This document shows positions 2,498-52,266 of a stretch of 64,000 nt of DNA, one piece after another. A model generated the notes under the pieces. The model was not told the DNA's origin. It worked only from the letters and a program-made list of their open reading frames with translations, and ran no database searches. Source of the DNA: Aminipila sp. (GTDB taxonomy: Bacteria > Bacillota > Clostridia > Peptostreptococcales > Anaerovoracaceae); the NCBI RefSeq assembly GCF_032051575.1, contig NZ_DAMBYD010000005.1, forward strand, positions 153,528 through 217,527. The letters run 5' to 3'. Each line of letters begins with the position of its first letter. Within the stretch, counting starts at the first letter, position 1. A program made the translations under genes and the position numbers.

Positions 2498-3850
2498 TTA
2501 TCCTTCCTTTCCAAGAGTATCCTCCTCATTTGGATTTGGAACAATATATAGTTTTACTTTTTCAATTCTTCGTTCTTTTACAGATTCTATTTTGAACACA
2601 CAGTTTTCATATTCGATAACACGTTCTTCTGGTTCATCTTCATCGGGTATTTCACCAAGTAAATCAATTAAAAGACCTCCAAGCGTCTCACTGTTTTCGG
2701 ATTGAAGATTTAAATTTAGTTTTTCATCTAAATTATCTAAATTGATAAATCCATCGACAATAAATGTATTATCGTCAATTTTCTCTATAGGAAGCTCTTC
2801 TTCGTCATATTCATCATCAATATCGCCCATTACTTCTTCAATAATGTCTTCCATTGTAACAATACCGGAAAATCCTCCGTATTCGTCGATTAAAATCGCA
2901 ATATGCTGTTTTGAGCTTTGTAAATCAAAGAATAAAGAATCAATATTTTTGGTTTCAGGAACAAAATATGGTTTCCTTAGAATTGATTTTATATCAACAT
3001 TTTCAAAGCCATCTTCCCTAGCTTTTATTAAATAATCTTTTATGTGTAATATACCGATGATATTATCACTGTCATCTTCATATACCGGAATTCTTGAATA
3101 TCTTAGCTCCATTAATTCATCAATATATTCTTCAGTAGGATCATTAATATCAATATAAAATACATCTGTTCTCGGAGTCATTACTTCATATGCAAGTTTA
3201 TCATCAAAAGCAAAGATCCGATTAATCATTTTTCTGCCTTTTTCTTTAAGTAAACCTGTTTCCTGTCCAAATTCAAGCATAGACATAACTTCATCTTCAG
3301 AGAATTCTTCATCTTCAATTTTTATCTTTTGTTTAGTAATCCATAAAAGTATATTTACAGAAGAAGATAAAATCCATACAAATGGTCTCGTTAGCTTTGA
3401 TAATATTATAATTGGCTGCACAACATGAAGTGCAATGGTTTCTGCATGTTGTAGTGCTATTCTTTTAGGATATAACTCACCAAAAACAAGTGTAACATAA
3501 GATAAAATAATAGTCACAACAAGAATAGCTATATATCCACCATAAGGTAATCCTAAGTTCGTTAATAATTCACCCAAATTATCAGACATCCCTACTGCCG
3601 CCGATGCACTAGCAAGAAATCCTGCCAAAGTAATGACTACTTGAATGGTAGATAGGAATACATTTGGTTTTTCTAATAGTTCCCGCAACATTGCAGCTTT
3701 TTTGTTTCCTTCTTGAGCAAGAAGTTTAATCTTATTTTTGTTTATAGATACGATAGACATTTCTGCAGCTGCAAAAAACGCATGTATAAAAATTAAAAAT
3801 ATTAAAAATATTATTTGCGCCATTACTGGCGTACTGGGGTCCGAAGACAT
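2498..3850 (-). CDS. HlyC/CorC (CNNM) family transporter: DUF21 membrane domain, CBS pair and CorC_HlyC domain
   Basis: 450 aa. The N-terminal 4-TM DUF21 pattern is FFAAAEMSIVS. The CBS region is VMTPRTDVFYIDIND. The C-terminal region is IEKIDDNTFIVDGFINLDNL. Confidence 0.85.
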   Translation of the reverse strand: MSSDPSTPVMAQIIFLIFLIFIHAFFAAAEMSIVSINKNKIKLLAQEGNKKAAMLRELLEKPNVFLSTIQVVITLAGFLASASAAVGMSDNLGELLTNLGLPYGGYIAILVVTIILSYVTLVFGELYPKRIALQHAETIALHVVQPIIILSKLTRPFVWILSSSVNILLWITKQKIKIEDEEFSEDEVMSMLEFGQETGLLKEKGRKMINRIFAFDDKLAYEVMTPRTDVFYIDINDPTEEYIDELMELRYSRIPVYEDDSDNIIGILHIKDYLIKAREDGFENVDIKSILRKPYFVPETKNIDSLFFDLQSSKQHIAILIDEYGGFSGIVTMEDIIEEVMGDIDDEYDEEELPIEKIDDNTFIVDGFINLDNLDEKLNLNLQSENSETLGGLLIDLLGEIPDEDEPEERVIEYENCVFKIESVKERRIEKVKLYIVPNPNEEDTLGKEG

Positions 3851-24948: not shown

Positions 24949-25035
24949 TGGTGCCGGCGATGGGGGTCGAACCCATACGGTGTTGCCACCACGGGATTTT
25001 GAGTCCCGCACGTCTGCCAATTCCATCACGCCGGC
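24949..25035 (-). tRNA. tRNA-Leu (anticodon CAA), CCA encoded
   Basis: The reverse complement folds as GCCGGCG-TG-D arm-CGGGA CTCAAAA TCCCG-15-nt variable arm-ATGGG TTCGACC CCCAT-CGCCGGC-A-CCA. It is 87 nt and a type II tRNA. Confidence 0.9.
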
Positions 25036-25113: not shown

Positions 25114-25195
25114 TGGTGCGCCCGACCAGACTTGAACTGGTACGATTGCTCACACGCCCCTCAAACGTGCGCGTCTGCCATTCCGCCACGGGCGC
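25114..25195 (-). tRNA. tRNA-Leu (anticodon GAG), CCA encoded
   Basis: The reverse complement folds as GCGCCCG-TG-GCG GAATGGCAGA CGC-G-CACGT TTGAGGG GCGTG-11-nt variable arm-ACCAG TTCAAGT CTGGT-CGGGCGC-A-CCA. It is 82 nt with a Leu-type D loop. Confidence 0.85.
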
Positions 25196-36822: not shown

Positions 36823-36983
36823 CTATGTTTCTGAACTTAAAAACATTGAAAGAATCATGATACTAGATTCTTCATATTTTTCTTTAAATTTGTCAGTCCC
36901 ATTCCTTAGGATATAGGCTTCATAATAAAAAAATTAAATAATTTATATGGGTACAGTTACTGTTTATACTGTCCACGATAGTC

Positions 36984-38696: not shown

Positions 38697-38937
38697 TCTT
38701 TTTCCTCCATTTGTAAAATACAGTATACAAAATTTTAACTTAATAAAAATCCCGACATGCCGTCAGGTTATAATTCACACCCTATCAGTAGATAGGGGGG
38801 TATCCTGCTTCCGCTTCTGTCTTCCACTGCTAAGGAGGCTTGACATAAGCTGCAAAGACTCGGATTCCCAAGGTCACAGTGTAGGTTGAATTATAATACC
38901 TTAACAAACACTTCAGGATTTCTTGCATTAATATTAT
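38697..38937 (-). promoter_or_regulatory. Structured GC-rich 5' leader of the FNT gene ending in an intrinsic terminator (riboswitch-like, class not recognised)
   Basis: On the minus strand, nested helices are CACTG...CAGTG, CTTGG-GAAT-CCGAG and CCCTATC-TACT-GATAGGG. The terminator CCTGAC-GGCAT-GTCGGG plus ATTTTTATT lies at 38742-38767. The segment is far more GC-rich than its flanks. Confidence 0.45.
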
Positions 38938-39003: not shown

Positions 39004-39981
39004 TTAAAAATCATCTTTTAAATAATAATTACAAACCTTATCCAGCTCTGAAGAAAATTGATATAAGTTATCCTCAATTTGCTCTTGATCAAACTGGTCA
39101 CGGTTTTCGTATATAGGTTGTATCAGTTCCTGCCATAAATTCTTTATGGTTATAAGCTGATCATAAATAAAATAATTCTCATTGTTGTCATAATCCGTTT
39201 CAATTTGCTCGATCTGTGATATATATGGTTGGAAATCTTTTAAACTATATAAAGATTCATCATACCATTGCATCTGATATGTATCATCGTAGAGCATTCT
39301 CAGATAACTTGTAATCAGACTCTCACTTCCCAAAGGACAGCTATCTATATTCTCTACAAGAGAACTATAAACAATAGGAGTCTCTGGGAAACTATAATCT
39401 GCTGTTTCTTCATATGCTTCATTAGTTTCCACATAACTATAATCGTCATGACTAGATGTGTTAACAAATGTTGTTATAAGAGCTAAAACAATCGTTATAA
39501 TTAATCCTGCAATTTTAATTATACTGGTCTTCTCTTCTTTAGAAGAATTAGAGAATTGCCGAAAAACTTTTTCTGCAGAATCCTTTACTTTTTTTATATC
39601 TTTCAAGCCTAAATATTCTGGGTCTTGATTAGTATATGTATCTGATGTATTTATATTTTCACTTATCGTATTCTCTTTAGTCTGCCCTGAACCTTCTTGA
39701 GTATAATTATCATATAATTCTTTTAGCGTACTTCCTTTTTTCTTTATGGTATCTTTTAGACTTTTATTTATTCTAGTCGTTCTTGTTAAAGTAACATCTT
39801 GCTTATATTTGGGGAGGTATGTAGAAAACCTACTAAAAATGCTTATAAATTTATCCCAAACGGAAAGACTTTCATAAAATTCGCAAGCATAATGACTGTA
39901 TTCAAGCTTAACAGGTCTGCCACAATGAGTACAAAATATGATGTTATTTCTTACTTCTTTTCCACAATGAACGCAACGCAT
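39004..39981 (-). CDS. Zinc-ribbon membrane protein, function unknown
   Basis: The N-terminus MRCVHCGKEVRNNIIFCTHCGRPV has CxxC-N13-CxxC. A single TM helix is IIKIAGLIITIVLALITTFV. The extracytoplasmic domain of about 150 aa is acidic and Tyr-rich. Confidence 0.6.
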   Translation of the reverse strand: MRCVHCGKEVRNNIIFCTHCGRPVKLEYSHYACEFYESLSVWDKFISIFSRFSTYLPKYKQDVTLTRTTRINKSLKDTIKKKGSTLKELYDNYTQEGSGQTKENTISENINTSDTYTNQDPEYLGLKDIKKVKDSAEKVFRQFSNSSKEEKTSIIKIAGLIITIVLALITTFVNTSSHDDYSYVETNEAYEETADYSFPETPIVYSSLVENIDSCPLGSESLITSYLRMLYDDTYQMQWYDESLYSLKDFQPYISQIEQIETDYDNNENYFIYDQLITIKNLWQELIQPIYENRDQFDQEQIEDNLYQFSSELDKVCNYYLKDDF

Positions 39982-40072
39982 AATGATTCCCCCTAACCCC
40001 GTAAAAAACGTATAAAATTATTATACCTTAAGTCATTTGATTAAACAATGATTATTAGAGTCTTCTCCTTCA

Positions 40073-40101
40073 TTGTTATATAGACCAAGTAATGATATAA
40101 T
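40073..40101 (+). promoter_or_regulatory. Promoter of the small toxin ORF (extended -10)
   Basis: TTGTTA-17 nt-TATAAT, with TGA immediately upstream of the -10 (TGATATAAT). Confidence 0.55.
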
Positions 40102-40156
40102 ATCTATAGGATTACCATTGGGTGGTTAGTCACTTCCTTATAAAGGGGGTGATGCT

Positions 40157-40246
40157 ATGGTTACATATGAAGGGCTTTTTGCCTATTCTCTTGTGATTGT
40201 TGGAATTATTTCCATTTGCATTACATTAATAATGCACAAAAAATAG
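40157..40246 (+). CDS. 29-aa hydrophobic peptide, BsrG/BsrE-like (holin-like) type I toxin candidate
   Basis: The ORF ATG...TAG encodes MVTYEGLFAYSLVIVGIISICITLIMHKK. The SD GGGGGTGA lies 5 nt upstream. It has one TM helix and a Lys-Lys C-terminus. It is below the ORF-track size cut-off. Confidence 0.65.
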   Translation: MVTYEGLFAYSLVIVGIISICITLIMHKK

Positions 40247-40335
40247 CACAGCCACCTAAATTAGCATTTTAGATGGCTTTCTTTGAACTTTGTTTTTGGA
40301 CTGACCACCATTGCAAAAGTGGTAATCCTTTTATT
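40238..40335 (-). ncRNA. Predicted cis-antisense RNA (antitoxin candidate) overlapping the toxin stop codon and 3' UTR
   Basis: It would be launched by the consensus promoter at 40342-40370. It ends at an 11-bp hairpin (40250-40278), which has G.U on the minus strand but a C.A mismatch on the plus strand, and then T6 (40238-40243). The 6-nt gap between stem and T run weakens the terminator call. Confidence 0.45.
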
Positions 40336-40341
40336 AATTTC

Positions 40342-40370
40342 ATTATATGTAGTTTCTAGCTATTAGTCAA
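40342..40370 (-). promoter_or_regulatory. Near-consensus sigma-A promoter convergent with the toxin ORF
   Basis: On the minus strand TTGACT-17 nt-TATAAT. No protein-coding ORF lies downstream of it. Confidence 0.55.
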
Positions 40371-40480
40371 CTATGTTTTAATGATATGCTATCTTTATTT
40401 TCAATCAAAATATTTTAACTCTAATTGAGGAAATTGCATAACTCCTCAATTACTAATTTATTAATTATATTTTACCTAGT

Positions 40481-40522
40481 AAAAACCCCTTACCGTATAG
40501 GAATAACCTAATCAATAAGGGG
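40481..40522 (-). terminator. Intrinsic terminator after yebC
   Basis: On the minus strand the outer stem is CCCCTTAT...GTAAGGGG and the inner stem is TAGG-TTATT-CCTA, followed by TTTTT. Confidence 0.55.
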
Positions 40523-40579
40523 TGTATAAACATAATTATTCCATATTGCTACAAACAATTAAATCATTTGAAATTCCAA

Positions 40580-41311
40580 TTATTCAAATTCTTCTAAATC
40601 AAGTGAACAATTGTGGTGAACTTTCTGAACGTCATCGTTATCTTCTAATATGTCAATCATCTTCTTAAGTTTTTTGATATCATGTTCATCTGTAGGGGCA
40701 CTTTCCATGGAAGGCACATATTCAATATCTGATTCAATCAATTCATAGCCTGCTGCTGTCAATGCACTATGTACATCTGTATATGCAGCTGGTTCAGTTT
40801 GGATTTCAAAAGAATCTTCATGAACAATCATATCCTCTGCTCCAGCTTCAAGAGCAGCTTCCATAAGAGCATCTTCATTTATATCACCAGTATTTTCGAT
40901 GATAATGACACCTTTTCTAGCAAACATATATGATACGCACCCTGGTGCTCCAAGGTTTCCACCATATTTATCAAAAGTTGATCTTACTGCTGCGGTAGTT
41001 CTGTTCTTGTTATCAGTTAACGCTTCAACTATAACAGCAACTCCTGCTACACCGTATCCTTCAAAACTTAATTCTTCATAAGTTTCACCTTCAAGTTCTC
41101 CAGTTCCCTTTTTGATAGCTCTGTTAATAGTATCATTTGGCAGATTAATGCCTTTAGCTTTTTCTATTGCCACTTTCAGTGACGCATTGTATTCTGGATC
41201 TCCACCGTTCTTAGCTGCTACTGTAATAGCCCTAGAGTATTTTGTAAATACCGCAGCTCTTTTTGAATCTTGTGCTGATTTACGTCCTGCGATTGTACCG
41301 TGTCTTCCCAT
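40580..41311 (-). CDS. yebC: YebC/PmpR family DNA-binding transcriptional regulator
   Basis: 243 aa. MGRHGTIAGRKSAQDSKRAAVFTK... is the canonical N-terminus of the family. Confidence 0.92.
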   Translation of the reverse strand: MGRHGTIAGRKSAQDSKRAAVFTKYSRAITVAAKNGGDPEYNASLKVAIEKAKGINLPNDTINRAIKKGTGELEGETYEELSFEGYGVAGVAVIVEALTDNKNRTTAAVRSTFDKYGGNLGAPGCVSYMFARKGVIIIENTGDINEDALMEAALEAGAEDMIVHEDSFEIQTEPAAYTDVHSALTAAGYELIESDIEYVPSMESAPTDEHDIKKLKKMIDILEDNDDVQKVHHNCSLDLEEFE

Positions 41312-47803: not shown

Positions 47804-47831
47804 ATTATACCATCAATTGCTGTTCTGTCAA
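47804..47831 (-). promoter_or_regulatory. Sigma-A promoter (extended -10) for the MATE gene
   Basis: On the minus strand TTGACA-16 nt-TATAAT with TGG immediately upstream of the -10. The predicted leader is about 160 nt. Confidence 0.45.
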
Positions 47832-51102: not shown

Positions 51103-51450
51103 GTTTTGGGCAAGTCTATAAGCCGGGTTCTGTATTAAACAATCATCTATCTAGGCGTACCATTACTGATACGCTCAAGCGACCTACCTACCGGGCAGCG
51201 ACGGGCCGCCGCCTTTTGTGCCCTATTTGGTCTTGCTCCGAGTGGGGTTTACACGGCCGTTATGTCTCCATAACGCCGGTGAGCTCTTACCTCACCATTT
51301 CAACCTTACCACAGCCTAACTGTTTCGGCGGAATGTTTCTGTTGCACTTTCCCTATAGTTACCTACGCCAGACGTTATCTGGCACTCTTGCCCTATGGAG
51401 CCCGGACTTTCCTCGTGCATAAGCACGCGACTGTCTGGCTTACCCAAAAC
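51103..51450 (-). ncRNA. rnpB: RNase P RNA (bacterial, type A-like)
   Basis: The reverse complement contains GAGGAAAGTCCGGGCTCCATAGGGCA and ACAGAACCCGGCTTA. P1 closes GTTTTGGG with CCCAAAAC. The segment is a strong GC island in AT-rich DNA. Confidence 0.9.
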
Positions 51451-51474: not shown

Positions 51475-52266
51475 CTATAAAAAGTCAAATGGATTTATAT
51501 TGACTTCAGATTCAAAGATTTCAACCTTATCTCCCAATACATCTTTCAACAGTTTAGCCATATTAGGTACAAATATCTTCTCTGTTCCATAATGTCCTGC
51601 ATCTATAACATTCATACCCATTTCTTTTGCCTTAATGGCATCATGATATTTAACATCACCTGTTATAAAAAGCTGGCATCTATTTACTGCTGCTATGTCA
51701 ATCATATCAATGCCGGCACCTGTGCAAAGTCCGATTTTACTAATCACATTTTCTAAATTTCCTATTACTTTAATTTCATTGGTCTGCAAATTTAAAATAT
51801 TTTTTAAATCACTAATGAGGTCTTTTAGCTTCATCTCTTTTGGTAATTCACCAAGTACTCCAATATAATTATCACCAAACTCTTGAAAATGCTTGATTTT
51901 TTTTAAATTTAGAAGCTGTGCTAAATAAAAATTATTTCCAAATTGTACTTTATCAAAGTTTGTATGTGCAGAAAAAACTGAAATTCCTTGTTGGATTAAG
52001 TCTATGGTGTACTTGCCTGTAATTTTATTATGGTCAACATTCTTAAAGGAAGAAAAATACAATGGATGATGTGTAACAATAAAATCAACACCTAAAATTT
52101 TTGCTTCATTTACAATTTCTTTTGTAATTTCAAGGGTTACAAGAATTTTATTAATTTGTTTAGATTCTAAATTTATCTGCATTCCACAATTATCCCAAGT
52201 CTCTGCCAACTGTATTGGTGCAATCTTTTCCATTGTTTCCATAAGTTCAAATTTGAAAATTCCCAT
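51475..52266 (-). CDS. Nif3-like dinuclear metal centre protein (YqfO family)
   Basis: PIQLAETWDNCGMQI and FIVTHHPL motifs. I set the start at ATG 52264-52266, one nt after the trmK stop codon. Confidence 0.85.
   Translation of the reverse strand: MGIFKFELMETMEKIAPIQLAETWDNCGMQINLESKQINKILVTLEITKEIVNEAKILGVDFIVTHHPLYFSSFKNVDHNKITGKYTIDLIQQGISVFSAHTNFDKVQFGNNFYLAQLLNLKKIKHFQEFGDNYIGVLGELPKEMKLKDLISDLKNILNLQTNEIKVIGNLENVISKIGLCTGAGIDMIDIAAVNRCQLFITGDVKYHDAIKAKEMGMNVIDAGHYGTEKIFVPNMAKLLKDVLGDKVEIFESEVNINPFDFL

Follow-up and report, generated by a model that had tools for sequence, protein, structure and literature searches.

A putative type I toxin‒antitoxin module of the Hol_Tox lineage in the core chromosome of Aminipila

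The 64,000-nt stretch of Aminipila sp. DNA analysed here (the window; from contig NZ_DAMBYD010000005.1 of assembly GCF_032051575.1) carries, in the gap between yebC and a zinc-ribbon gene, an element that, judged from its sequence, is probably a chromosomal type I toxin‒antitoxin (TA) module of the Hol_Tox (TxpA/BsrG/BsrE-like) superfamily. It comprises an open reading frame (ORF) for a 29-aa peptide, a promoter and highly structured predicted mRNA for that ORF, and a convergent promoter for a predicted antisense RNA that overlaps the 3′ part of the toxin mRNA. The host of the module is Aminipila (Clostridia), an anaerobe and not a Bacillus, and its position is in the core chromosome, not in a prophage. 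A preliminary description of the DNA had called the element a BsrG/SR4-like type I TA module. That assignment is supported by the best Rfam match, the RNA fold, conservation and sibling peptides, but the match to the Rfam BsrG model (RF01412) is below the gathering score and the peptide itself is unrecognised by the Hol_Tox model. The sequence elements, folding potential, conservation, co-variation, coding signature and family relationship presented below were computed directly. What is new is a divergent module of the Hol_Tox lineage, together with evidence for an uncatalogued Clostridial branch; the 3′-overlapping organisation is already textbook, and no new principle is claimed.

Organisation of the Module

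The putative toxin ORF (nt 40157–40246, plus strand) specifies the 29-aa peptide MVTYEGLFAYSLVIVGIISICITLIMHKK. It was described before as unannotated, and no assembly that carries the module has a gene call in the yebC/zinc-ribbon gap. The peptide begins with an acidic N-terminal MVTYEG, followed by 20 hydrophobic residues and an HKK tail. The transmembrane-length stretch corresponds to residues 7–26 and has a mean Kyte–Doolittle hydropathy of 2.6. This is the layout typical of Hol_Tox peptides (25–38 aa, M-x-x-[YF]-E start, one hydrophobic helix, Lys/Arg tail), which about 110 family peptides share, and by analogy with BsrG the peptide would insert in the membrane. Other small ORFs nearby were rejected: a 24-aa ORF starting with GTG at 40122 (plus strand) has no Shine–Dalgarno (SD) sequence and overlaps the structure of the 5′ untranslated region (UTR); a 28-aa ORF at 40273–40359 (plus) also has no SD and is lost in one of the related loci (L044); and the ATG of a 24-aa ORF at 40343–40269 (minus) lies inside the −10 hexamer of the antisense promoter, upstream of the predicted RNA start.

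A promoter scan of the plus strand returned TTGTTA-17-TATAAT at nt 40073–40101 (10/12), with an extended −10 (TG at 40093–94), and so bore out the earlier proposal of a TTGTTA-17 promoter there. Transcription is predicted to start at A40108 or G40109, which would give a toxin mRNA of ~230 nt (nt 40108–40335, plus) with a deduced 3′ end. The convergent promoter that had been proposed on the other strand was also recovered (TTGACT-17-TATAAT, nt 40370–40342, minus; 11/12). Its −10 hexamer ends 95 nt past the toxin stop codon. Promoters scoring at least 11/12 are infrequent, with seven in the whole window on both strands (~1 per 18 kb per strand).

Promoter and terminator geometry predict an antisense RNA of ~95–100 nt (nt 40238–40335, minus) that would start at ~40335 and end at ~40238–40243, and would be fully complementary to the 3′ UTR, the stop codon and the last one or two codons of the toxin mRNA. 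Its presumed terminator is an 11-bp hairpin (nt 40250–40278) just past the toxin stop, which has a G.U pair on the minus strand and a C.A mismatch on the plus strand, exactly as previously described. On the minus strand a T-run follows the stem, and this is the sole terminator-like site in nt 39700–40900 (0.2 expected from shuffles). At the sequence level, these elements point to a cis-encoded antisense RNA gene overlapping the toxin mRNA.

RNA Structure

Folding, which had been suggested as a check, gave strong structures for both RNAs. The 230-nt plus RNA has a minimum free energy (MFE) of −78.4 kcal/mol compared with −49.5 ± 4.3 kcal/mol for dinucleotide shuffles (z = −6.66, with none of 200 shuffles equal), and the 98-nt minus RNA forms a two-hairpin fold (z = −4.0). 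The MFE fold of the plus RNA contains both a closure of its 5′ and 3′ ends and a hairpin that includes the SD sequence. The closing helix, P1, joins the first ~24 nt of the mRNA to a segment 53–82 nt beyond the stop codon. Its 5′ strand (nt 40109–40131) consists of GGATTACCA (40109–40117) and GGTGGTTAGTC (40121–40131), which pair with TGGTAATCC (40320–40328) and GACTGACCACC (40299–40309), respectively, and these are the complementarities noted in the preliminary description. The 3′ strand (nt 40298–40328) is followed by TTTTATTAATTT, and the minus strand of the same DNA specifies the 5′ stem-loop of the predicted antisense RNA. The SD, AAGGGGGTG (40143–40151), is situated 7 nt 5′ of the ATG and pairs with CACTTCCTT (40131–40139) in an SD-sequestering hairpin (nt 40130–40152) with the 3-nt loop AUA. 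The hairpin is where it had been placed, but its helix is 10 bp in the MFE fold and not 9 bp. When the 3′ part of the mRNA was removed in silico, the 5′ end formed its own hairpin and the SD helix lengthened from 10 to 11 bp.

On the plus strand, the 40250–40278 stem-loop exposes a 7-nt loop (40261–40267) complementary to the loop of the antisense terminator, and this loop pair is a candidate kissing contact in the modelled structures. A shorter plus RNA ending at this hairpin could use an alternative helix (40118–40125/40252–40259), as the Rfam model aligns. That model, RF01412 (BsrG), was the best plus-strand match (nt 40118–40259; 32.8 bits, E = 3e-6 in a local search; model positions 20–159 of 259), and the alignment covers the SD hairpin, the GGGGGUGAUGCU-AUG spacer, the xxY/F-E-x-L start of the ORF and its AAAAAAUAG end (KK-stop). 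This match and the fold, which follows the published plan of bsrG mRNA (PMC3834814), support the earlier suggestion of a BsrG/SR4-like module; the predicted overlap of the transcripts at their 3′ sides is the arrangement published for the TxpA/RatA and BsrE-G-H families (PMC8594479). Weak Rfam matches to rli28 (E 0.1–0.18) and to lactis-plasmid (E 0.5–0.9, minus strand) were judged to be chance.

Relationship to the Hol_Tox Superfamily

The connection of the peptide to Hol_Tox runs through its siblings. Two of these, MVTYEGLFTFCLVIIGIIGLFQDKKK (L075) and MVTYEALFAFCLVIISIIALFQGNKK (L057), align to the window peptide with Smith–Waterman z values of 12–13, a level equalled by none of 5000 shuffles. 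Against the Pfam Hol_Tox model (PF16935; cutoff 23.3 bits), L057 scored 25.4 bits, above the cutoff, and L075 scored 18.4 bits. A subfamily pattern was found at 67 metagenome loci and gave 33 distinct MVTYEG/A-LF peptides (31 complete, at 25–30 aa; two cut short; one read-through). The gut-metagenome siblings of this type are 41–68% identical to the window peptide, and the 28–29-aa forms ~55–60%. Eighteen of the 22 aligned subfamily members match Hol_Tox at E ≤ 0.01 (best 6e-9); of the four without such a match, three are the Aminipila variants. In a profile–profile comparison with HHalign, the subfamily matched the Bacilli profile at a probability of 94.5% (E = 8e-8), the match being confined to the first ~20 columns. 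On the strength of the sibling matches and the profile–profile match, the window peptide is counted as a Hol_Tox member, and we conclude that, as far as its sequence can tell, it would be a divergent one, detectable only transitively. The BsrG-like character claimed for it earlier holds for the layout and for the sibling and profile link to Hol_Tox, but the resemblance of its N-terminus to 'MTVYESL' is not significant against Bacilli peptides alone.

A wider search used a family DNA pattern consisting of an SD, spacer, ATG, xxY/F-E, 55–85 nt and a KK-stop. It detected at least 119 genome loci, and among the matches listed about half were from Bacilli; the others listed came from Clostridia and further Bacillota, namely Lachnospiraceae, Blautia, Hungatella, Peptoniphilus, Filifactor, Peptostreptococcaceae, Ruminococcaceae/Oscillospiraceae and uncultured Aminipila. 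A few longer unrelated ORFs still matched the KK-stop pattern in the genome scan. An earlier version without the tail constraint (SD-ATG-xxY/FE) also matched unrelated genes, among them a 43-aa phage ORF and some longer ORFs.

The related loci share more than the peptide. A convergent promoter (at least 10/12) lies downstream of the stop codon in 58% of 113 modules compared with 5% in a same-strand control. Of 50 unique subfamily modules, 36 have such a promoter, with a median distance of 85 nt from the stop (range 75–109; 95 nt in the window), and 0/50 have one on the same strand. In 75% of the 113 modules the 5′ UTR is significantly complementary to the 3′ region. By this fixed-window measure the helix of the window module reaches only z = 1.9, a consequence of its short 5′ UTR (49 nt) and of the promoter DNA that was included; the valid tests of closure are the whole-transcript fold and the cognate duplex matrix. 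In the latter, cognate 5′/3′ duplexes averaged −40.7 kcal/mol versus −27.2 kcal/mol for non-cognate ones, each 5′ end favouring its own 3′ end. For the window the values are −34.0 and −19.4 kcal/mol, and its cognate duplex is matched only by that of its own Aminipila relative. The folds of the putative L075 and L057 mRNAs (z = −9.0 and −7.5) resemble that of the window mRNA, with closing helices of unrelated sequence.

Across 21 subfamily sequences, RNAalifold indicated that the outer part of P1 is kept, with both partners changed at four to five pairs (C-G in 13 sequences versus U-A in five at one of them, and G-C in 15 versus A-U in five at another), and that the SD hairpin is nearly invariant, with only G-C/G-U changes. 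In this alignment a 1-nt indel leaves the inner half of P1 out of register. The UTRs of the sister group are visibly homologous to those of the window. The ORF itself shows a coding signature: over codons 9–29 of the subfamily, with the eight codons fixed by the pattern removed, the ratio of the proportions of nonsynonymous (pN) and synonymous (pS) differences is 0.52 in frame versus 1.16 when the frame is shifted, and variation is lowest at second codon positions.

Tandem or multiple copies of related modules, a few hundred bases apart, are frequent (L059, L069, L091, L102, L104, L132, L147 and L192) and occur in Peptoniphilus, Filifactor, Peptostreptococcaceae, Parasporobacterium, Lachnospiraceae and Oscillospiraceae. 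Locus L102 has three copies, one with a read-through ORF. Modules of the Hol_Tox type were also seen on short contigs binned as Muribaculum, Bacteroidaceae, Alistipes and Mailhella (L055, L081, L124 and L155). These are probably mis-binned Firmicutes DNA, or possibly cases of horizontal transfer.

Conservation and Decay in Aminipila

Syntenic loci were gathered via homologues of the zinc-ribbon protein. The module is present in the same yebC/zinc-ribbon gap in L001, L041, L042/L043 and L044, of which L001 is a near-identical contig of a metagenome-assembled genome (GCA_032091395.1) with one amino acid change, H27Y. The peptide and its flanking complementarity, which the preliminary description had singled out for comparison among relatives, have both been retained: the peptide is identical at 28–29 of 29 residues in four other Aminipila loci, and P1 is conserved. 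The module core, bounded by the plus start and the antisense −35 hexamer, is 91–97% identical, about as conserved as yebC (93–98%) and more so than the flanking intergenic DNA (77–94%). In the Aminipila alignment the hexamers of both promoters are kept and their spacers change. Those of the toxin promoter are maintained in L041 (TTGTCA/TATACT), L042 and L044. The convergent promoter, whose conservation had likewise been proposed for checking, has not changed in either hexamer in any of the four aligned Aminipila lineages, even though its spacer differs at several positions in L044. A stretch of ~60 nt (roughly 40290–40350), which takes in the P1 3′ strand/antisense 5′ stem-loop and the antisense −10 hexamer, is invariant in the same four lineages. 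Changes in the ORF are mostly synonymous third-position substitutions (CTT>CTA, TTT>TTC, GTG>GTA, ATT>ATC) with a conservative L>I, and the window and L044 ORFs differ with pS 0.154 and pN 0.015.

Decayed forms of the locus also occur. In L045 (JGI metagenome 3300011157, nt 2868–3060) the toxin promoter, the 5′ UTR and nearly the whole ORF are lost, with 'NMHNKQ' in place of 'IMHKK*'. Still present are the terminator hairpin, which a C>T change has made perfect, a 5′ stem-loop of reduced length and the antisense promoter, here TTGACG-17-TATAAT. By its sequence, L045 is an apparent orphan antisense gene between yebC and the zinc-ribbon gene. Loss of the toxin half with retention of the antisense gene is the decay order expected of a TA pair. 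In A. terrae (L046; CP047591, nt 2830–3000) only a hairpin, AGCCATCTAAAT..ATTTAGATGGCT, remains, ~20 nt from the yebC stop and beside an unrelated second hairpin. This is either all that is left of the module or a terminator that belonged ancestrally to yebC and has been reused by the module. L049 and L050 have no trace of the module. The genus therefore offers a series from intact module through orphan antisense gene to lone hairpin, of use for the study of module loss.

That A. terrae has kept this hairpin near the yebC stop and nothing else of the module raises the question of whether the minus-strand features simply belong to the yebC 3′ end, as a terminator or 3′ UTR, with the plus-strand ORF being a chance ORF of a structured intergenic region or a decayed repeat element between inverted repeats. 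L044 has no separate yebC terminator, so that read-through would stop at the 40250–40278 hairpin, and the 5′/3′ complementarity superficially resembles terminal inverted repeats. We consider this explanation very improbable. In the window, yebC has its own terminator-like hairpin and T-run (~40483–40525), and conservation of the 11/12 antisense promoter extends to each of its hexamers. The same convergent promoter accompanies related modules at 185 other loci, none of which has yebC nearby, and the module is thus autonomous and not a feature of yebC. The ORF has the substitution pattern of a coding sequence, and no second copy of the module was found within the 64-kb window. A miniature inverted-repeat transposable element or similar inverted-repeat element was rejected on the same two grounds, the absence of another copy in the window and the coding signature of the ORF.

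Assessment of the Assignment

Several results weigh against the assignment to a Hol_Tox-type TA module, most of them concerning direct recognition of the family. The Pfam holin-like-toxin model, which the preliminary description had recommended, does not recognise the peptide: searches against Pfam and NCBIfam gave no match even at E ≤ 10, and the PF16935 cutoff of 23.3 bits was not reached. The positive controls, family peptides from viral contigs, scored 52–53 bits on Hol_Tox and also matched NCBIfam PepG1 and ComI. Scored with a home-made hidden Markov model of 16 family peptides taken from viral contigs, the window peptide reached 2.7 bits and ranked seventh among 320 small ORFs in the window. 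Of 2000 shuffles of the peptide, 228 (11%) did equally well, so the resemblance to the BsrG N-terminus alone is no evidence. Searches with the X-padded peptide found no protein sharing words with it in large protein databases, and tblastn returned only two Listeria phage matches (E = 5) from phage records and none from plasmid records. The RF01412 score of the RNA is below the gathering score of 55, and the module is absent from the gathering-level scan of the whole window. With the same model, a Brevibacillus control scored 94.7 bits, the best Clostridial module (L111) 38.9 bits, and seven other Clostridial loci had E > 0.01. The low scores of the Clostridial modules indicate that the window score is typical of a Clostridial branch outside the curated boundary of the Rfam family.

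Other adverse points concern the RNAs and the strength of the comparisons. Covariation contributed almost nothing in the first cross-lineage RNAalifold run, for which the sequences had been aligned with MAFFT. Conservation of the Aminipila locus has limited power on its own, because the relatives are close (yebC 93–98% nt identity) and the zinc-ribbon gene is fast-evolving. The minus-strand T-run begins 4 nt past the 40250–40278 stem, and the plus strand has no separate terminator after P1, the 3′ strand of which runs directly into TTTTATTAATTT. Lastly, the SD is buried in a helix of 10–11 bp in both modelled states. A change of only 1 bp means that a translational switch like that of bsrG (4 to 8 bp) is not evident, and decay of the mRNA is the likelier mode of control.

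The buried SD and the unrecognised peptide could together be taken to mean that the module is a decaying, non-functional TA remnant, its SD permanently locked and its peptide drifted off-profile, so that only the antisense gene, or nothing, still matters. Most siblings pass the Hol_Tox test that the window peptide fails, and L045 and A. terrae show that the locus does decay within the genus. There is little to recommend this idea, given that five independent assemblies have an intact ORF, with 28–29 of 29 residues identical and a synonymous-biased pattern of change, and that the two promoters, P1 and the SD are likewise undamaged and conserved. Wild-type bsrG mRNA likewise has no detectable translation in vitro, yet that system is functional (PMC3834814). 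An intact TA module remains the probable interpretation.

Proposed Mechanism and Comparison with Known Systems

If the module works as its architecture suggests, the sigma-A-type promoter (nt 40073–40101) would produce the ~230-nt mRNA for the 29-residue, single-helix membrane peptide, and P1 and the SD hairpin would keep this mRNA from being translated. The convergent promoter (nt 40370–40342) would supply an antisense RNA of ~95 nt terminating at the 40278–40250 hairpin. The two RNAs could make first contact through their complementary hairpin loops (40261–40267), after which the spreading duplex would displace the 5′ end of the mRNA from P1. As the antisense 5′ stem-loop is the complement of the P1 3′ strand, the antisense RNA would imitate the 5′ end of the mRNA and compete with it. 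The resulting duplex of ~95 bp would be cleaved, presumably by RNase III, and the toxin mRNA removed, with the SD still buried (11 bp in the model of the bound state). If the antisense RNA were lost, the peptide would accumulate, enter the membrane and arrest or lyse the cell. Transcription of both strands, the RNA ends, the part played by RNase III and toxicity are what we infer here from analogy with characterised systems.

The closest parallel is bsrG/SR4 of the B. subtilis SPbeta prophage, the system on which RF01412 is based. Both have a single-helix peptide with an M-x-x-Y-E-x-L start and a lysine end, a helix P1 between the mRNA 5′ end and 3′ UTR, an SD inside a hairpin (SL1 in bsrG; PMC3834814), and a convergent, 3′-overlapping antisense RNA whose terminator loop faces a complementary loop of the mRNA. 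In bsrG, binding of SR4 frees the 5′ end of the mRNA and extends the SD helix, leading to translational repression and RNase III-dependent decay (PMC3834814). BsrG is located in the membrane and perturbs envelope synthesis. The Aminipila module differs in several respects. Its peptide has 29 aa and BsrG has 38 aa; SR4 is ~183 nt, whereas the Aminipila antisense RNA is predicted to be ~95 nt and complementary over its entire length. The bsrG/SR4 overlap is 123 nt. The SD helix of bsrG grows from 4 to 8 bp on SR4 binding, while that of the Aminipila mRNA already has 10 bp (11 bp in the bound-state model), and bsrG mRNA has a separate terminator after P1, whereas in Aminipila the P1 3′ strand continues into the U-tract. 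Finally, bsrG resides in a Bacilli prophage and the Aminipila module in the core chromosome of a Clostridial host.

The txpA/RatA pair (B. subtilis skin element; EF3263 of E. faecalis) and bsrE/SR5 belong to the same PF16935 superfamily, to which the window peptide would be linked through profiles and siblings. The antisense RNAs of txpA/RatA and the BsrE-G-H families overlap on the 3′ side (PMC8594479), as predicted here, and RNase III degradation of the duplex has been documented for txpA/RatA (PMC6563280). BsrE, at 30 aa, is close in length to the window peptide (29 aa), whereas TxpA has 59 aa, and the window peptide is below Hol_Tox detection. For Clostridia there is a family precedent in the TxpA-like sequences of Clostridiales reported by Fozo et al. 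in 2010 (PMC2887945), which concerned peptide homologues in a few genomes, with C. bolteae named in a later review (PMC6563280). None of the papers cited here describes the MVTYEG/A-LF subfamily or the Aminipila locus with its RNA architecture. The C. difficile modules (e.g., CD2517.1/RCd8) are type I TA systems in a Clostridial host and specify peptides with a transmembrane segment and charged C-terminus (PMC6563280). Their toxins are 34–59 aa, without sequence similarity to the B. subtilis families, and mostly within prophages or beside CRISPR arrays (PMC6563280), unlike the Aminipila module, which appears to be of the Hol_Tox lineage.

Membership of this lineage does not by itself make a peptide a toxin. 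Some family members have no toxicity or host-specific toxicity (Fozo et al., PMC2887945), and Bacilli-type family peptides also match the NCBIfam model of ComI, a competence inhibitor. The locus might then be a gene for a small membrane protein with a physiological role, such as modulation of a membrane process, comparable to the 30-aa ComI, in which a cis-antisense regulator would merely tune the peptide level and no TA function is involved. Its place in the core chromosome, not on a mobile element, would suit such a gene, as would an SD so tightly buried that very low expression is expected. We regard this alternative as rather unlikely. The architecture is that of the characterised toxic members, with a silenced mRNA, a 3′-overlapping antisense RNA and a strong, constitutive-looking antisense promoter. 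In addition, the decay order in L045, with the toxin half gone and the antisense gene kept, is the one expected if losing the antisense gene first were lethal.

Within the preferred reading as a TA module, a more specific proposal may be put forward tentatively, although we think it less likely to be right than wrong: the MVTYEG/A-LF peptides (25–30 aa) might form a distinct Hol_Tox-type clade, widespread in gut anaerobes and essentially unannotated, with three departures from the design of the Bacillus paradigms. In the modelled structures, the SD would be locked in a 10–11-bp helix whether or not the antisense RNA is bound. The mRNA would lack a terminator of its own, and P1 with its U-tract might double as one and, on the other strand, as the antisense 5′ stem-loop. 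The antisense RNA, imitating the 5′ end of the mRNA, would compete with it for the same 3′ strand. If true, this would be a strand-exchange design in which activation of the toxin needs a specific trigger, such as processing or temperature, and not simply loss of the antisense RNA.

The genes of type I TA systems are routinely missed by annotation, and the Aminipila peptide escapes the thresholds of Pfam, NCBIfam and Rfam alike. If the assignment is correct, the BsrG/TxpA (Hol_Tox) lineage, known mainly from prophages of Bacilli, extends to the core chromosome of Aminipila. The scans also show a sizeable, mostly uncatalogued branch in Clostridia and gut anaerobes with the same RNA architecture. 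The siblings could serve as seeds for broader Pfam and Rfam models. A compact module of 300 bp might also provide a tool for counter-selection or stabilisation in anaerobes that are hard to manipulate, as with the C. difficile modules.

Neighbouring Features

The module is flanked on one side by yebC (nt 40580–41311, minus strand) and on the other by the zinc-ribbon gene (nt 39004–39981, minus), which specifies a 325-aa protein assigned by its sources to Aminipila sp.; beyond the latter are a 6S RNA gene and then a formate/nitrite transporter gene. The zinc-ribbon gene diverges far faster than its neighbours, at 73–87% nt and 62–82% aa identity in the genomes where yebC is 93–98% identical, and the length of its product varies from 179 to 381 aa among relatives. 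The likely yebC terminator (nt 40483–40525, minus) is a long, imperfect hairpin (CCCCTTA...TAAGGGG) with TTTTT after it. L041 and L042 have it as well, and it is deleted in L044, where read-through from yebC would consequently enter the antisense gene. Between the antisense promoter and this terminator there is a perfect 9-bp inverted repeat, AATTGAGGA-N11-TCCTCAATT (nt 40424–40452), which is not conserved in L042 and L044.

Rfam matches at the gathering level in the window, all on the minus strand, were the 6S RNA (nt 38745–38922), situated between the transporter and zinc-ribbon genes, the class A RNase P RNA (nt 51103–51446), a pan motif (nt 36890–36975) and two tRNAs (nt 24952–25035 and 25117–25195). 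The RNase P RNA gene has an 11/12 promoter at 51488. Two sigma-70-type promoters with a full 12/12 consensus were found in the window, at 47831 and 26671, both on the minus strand.

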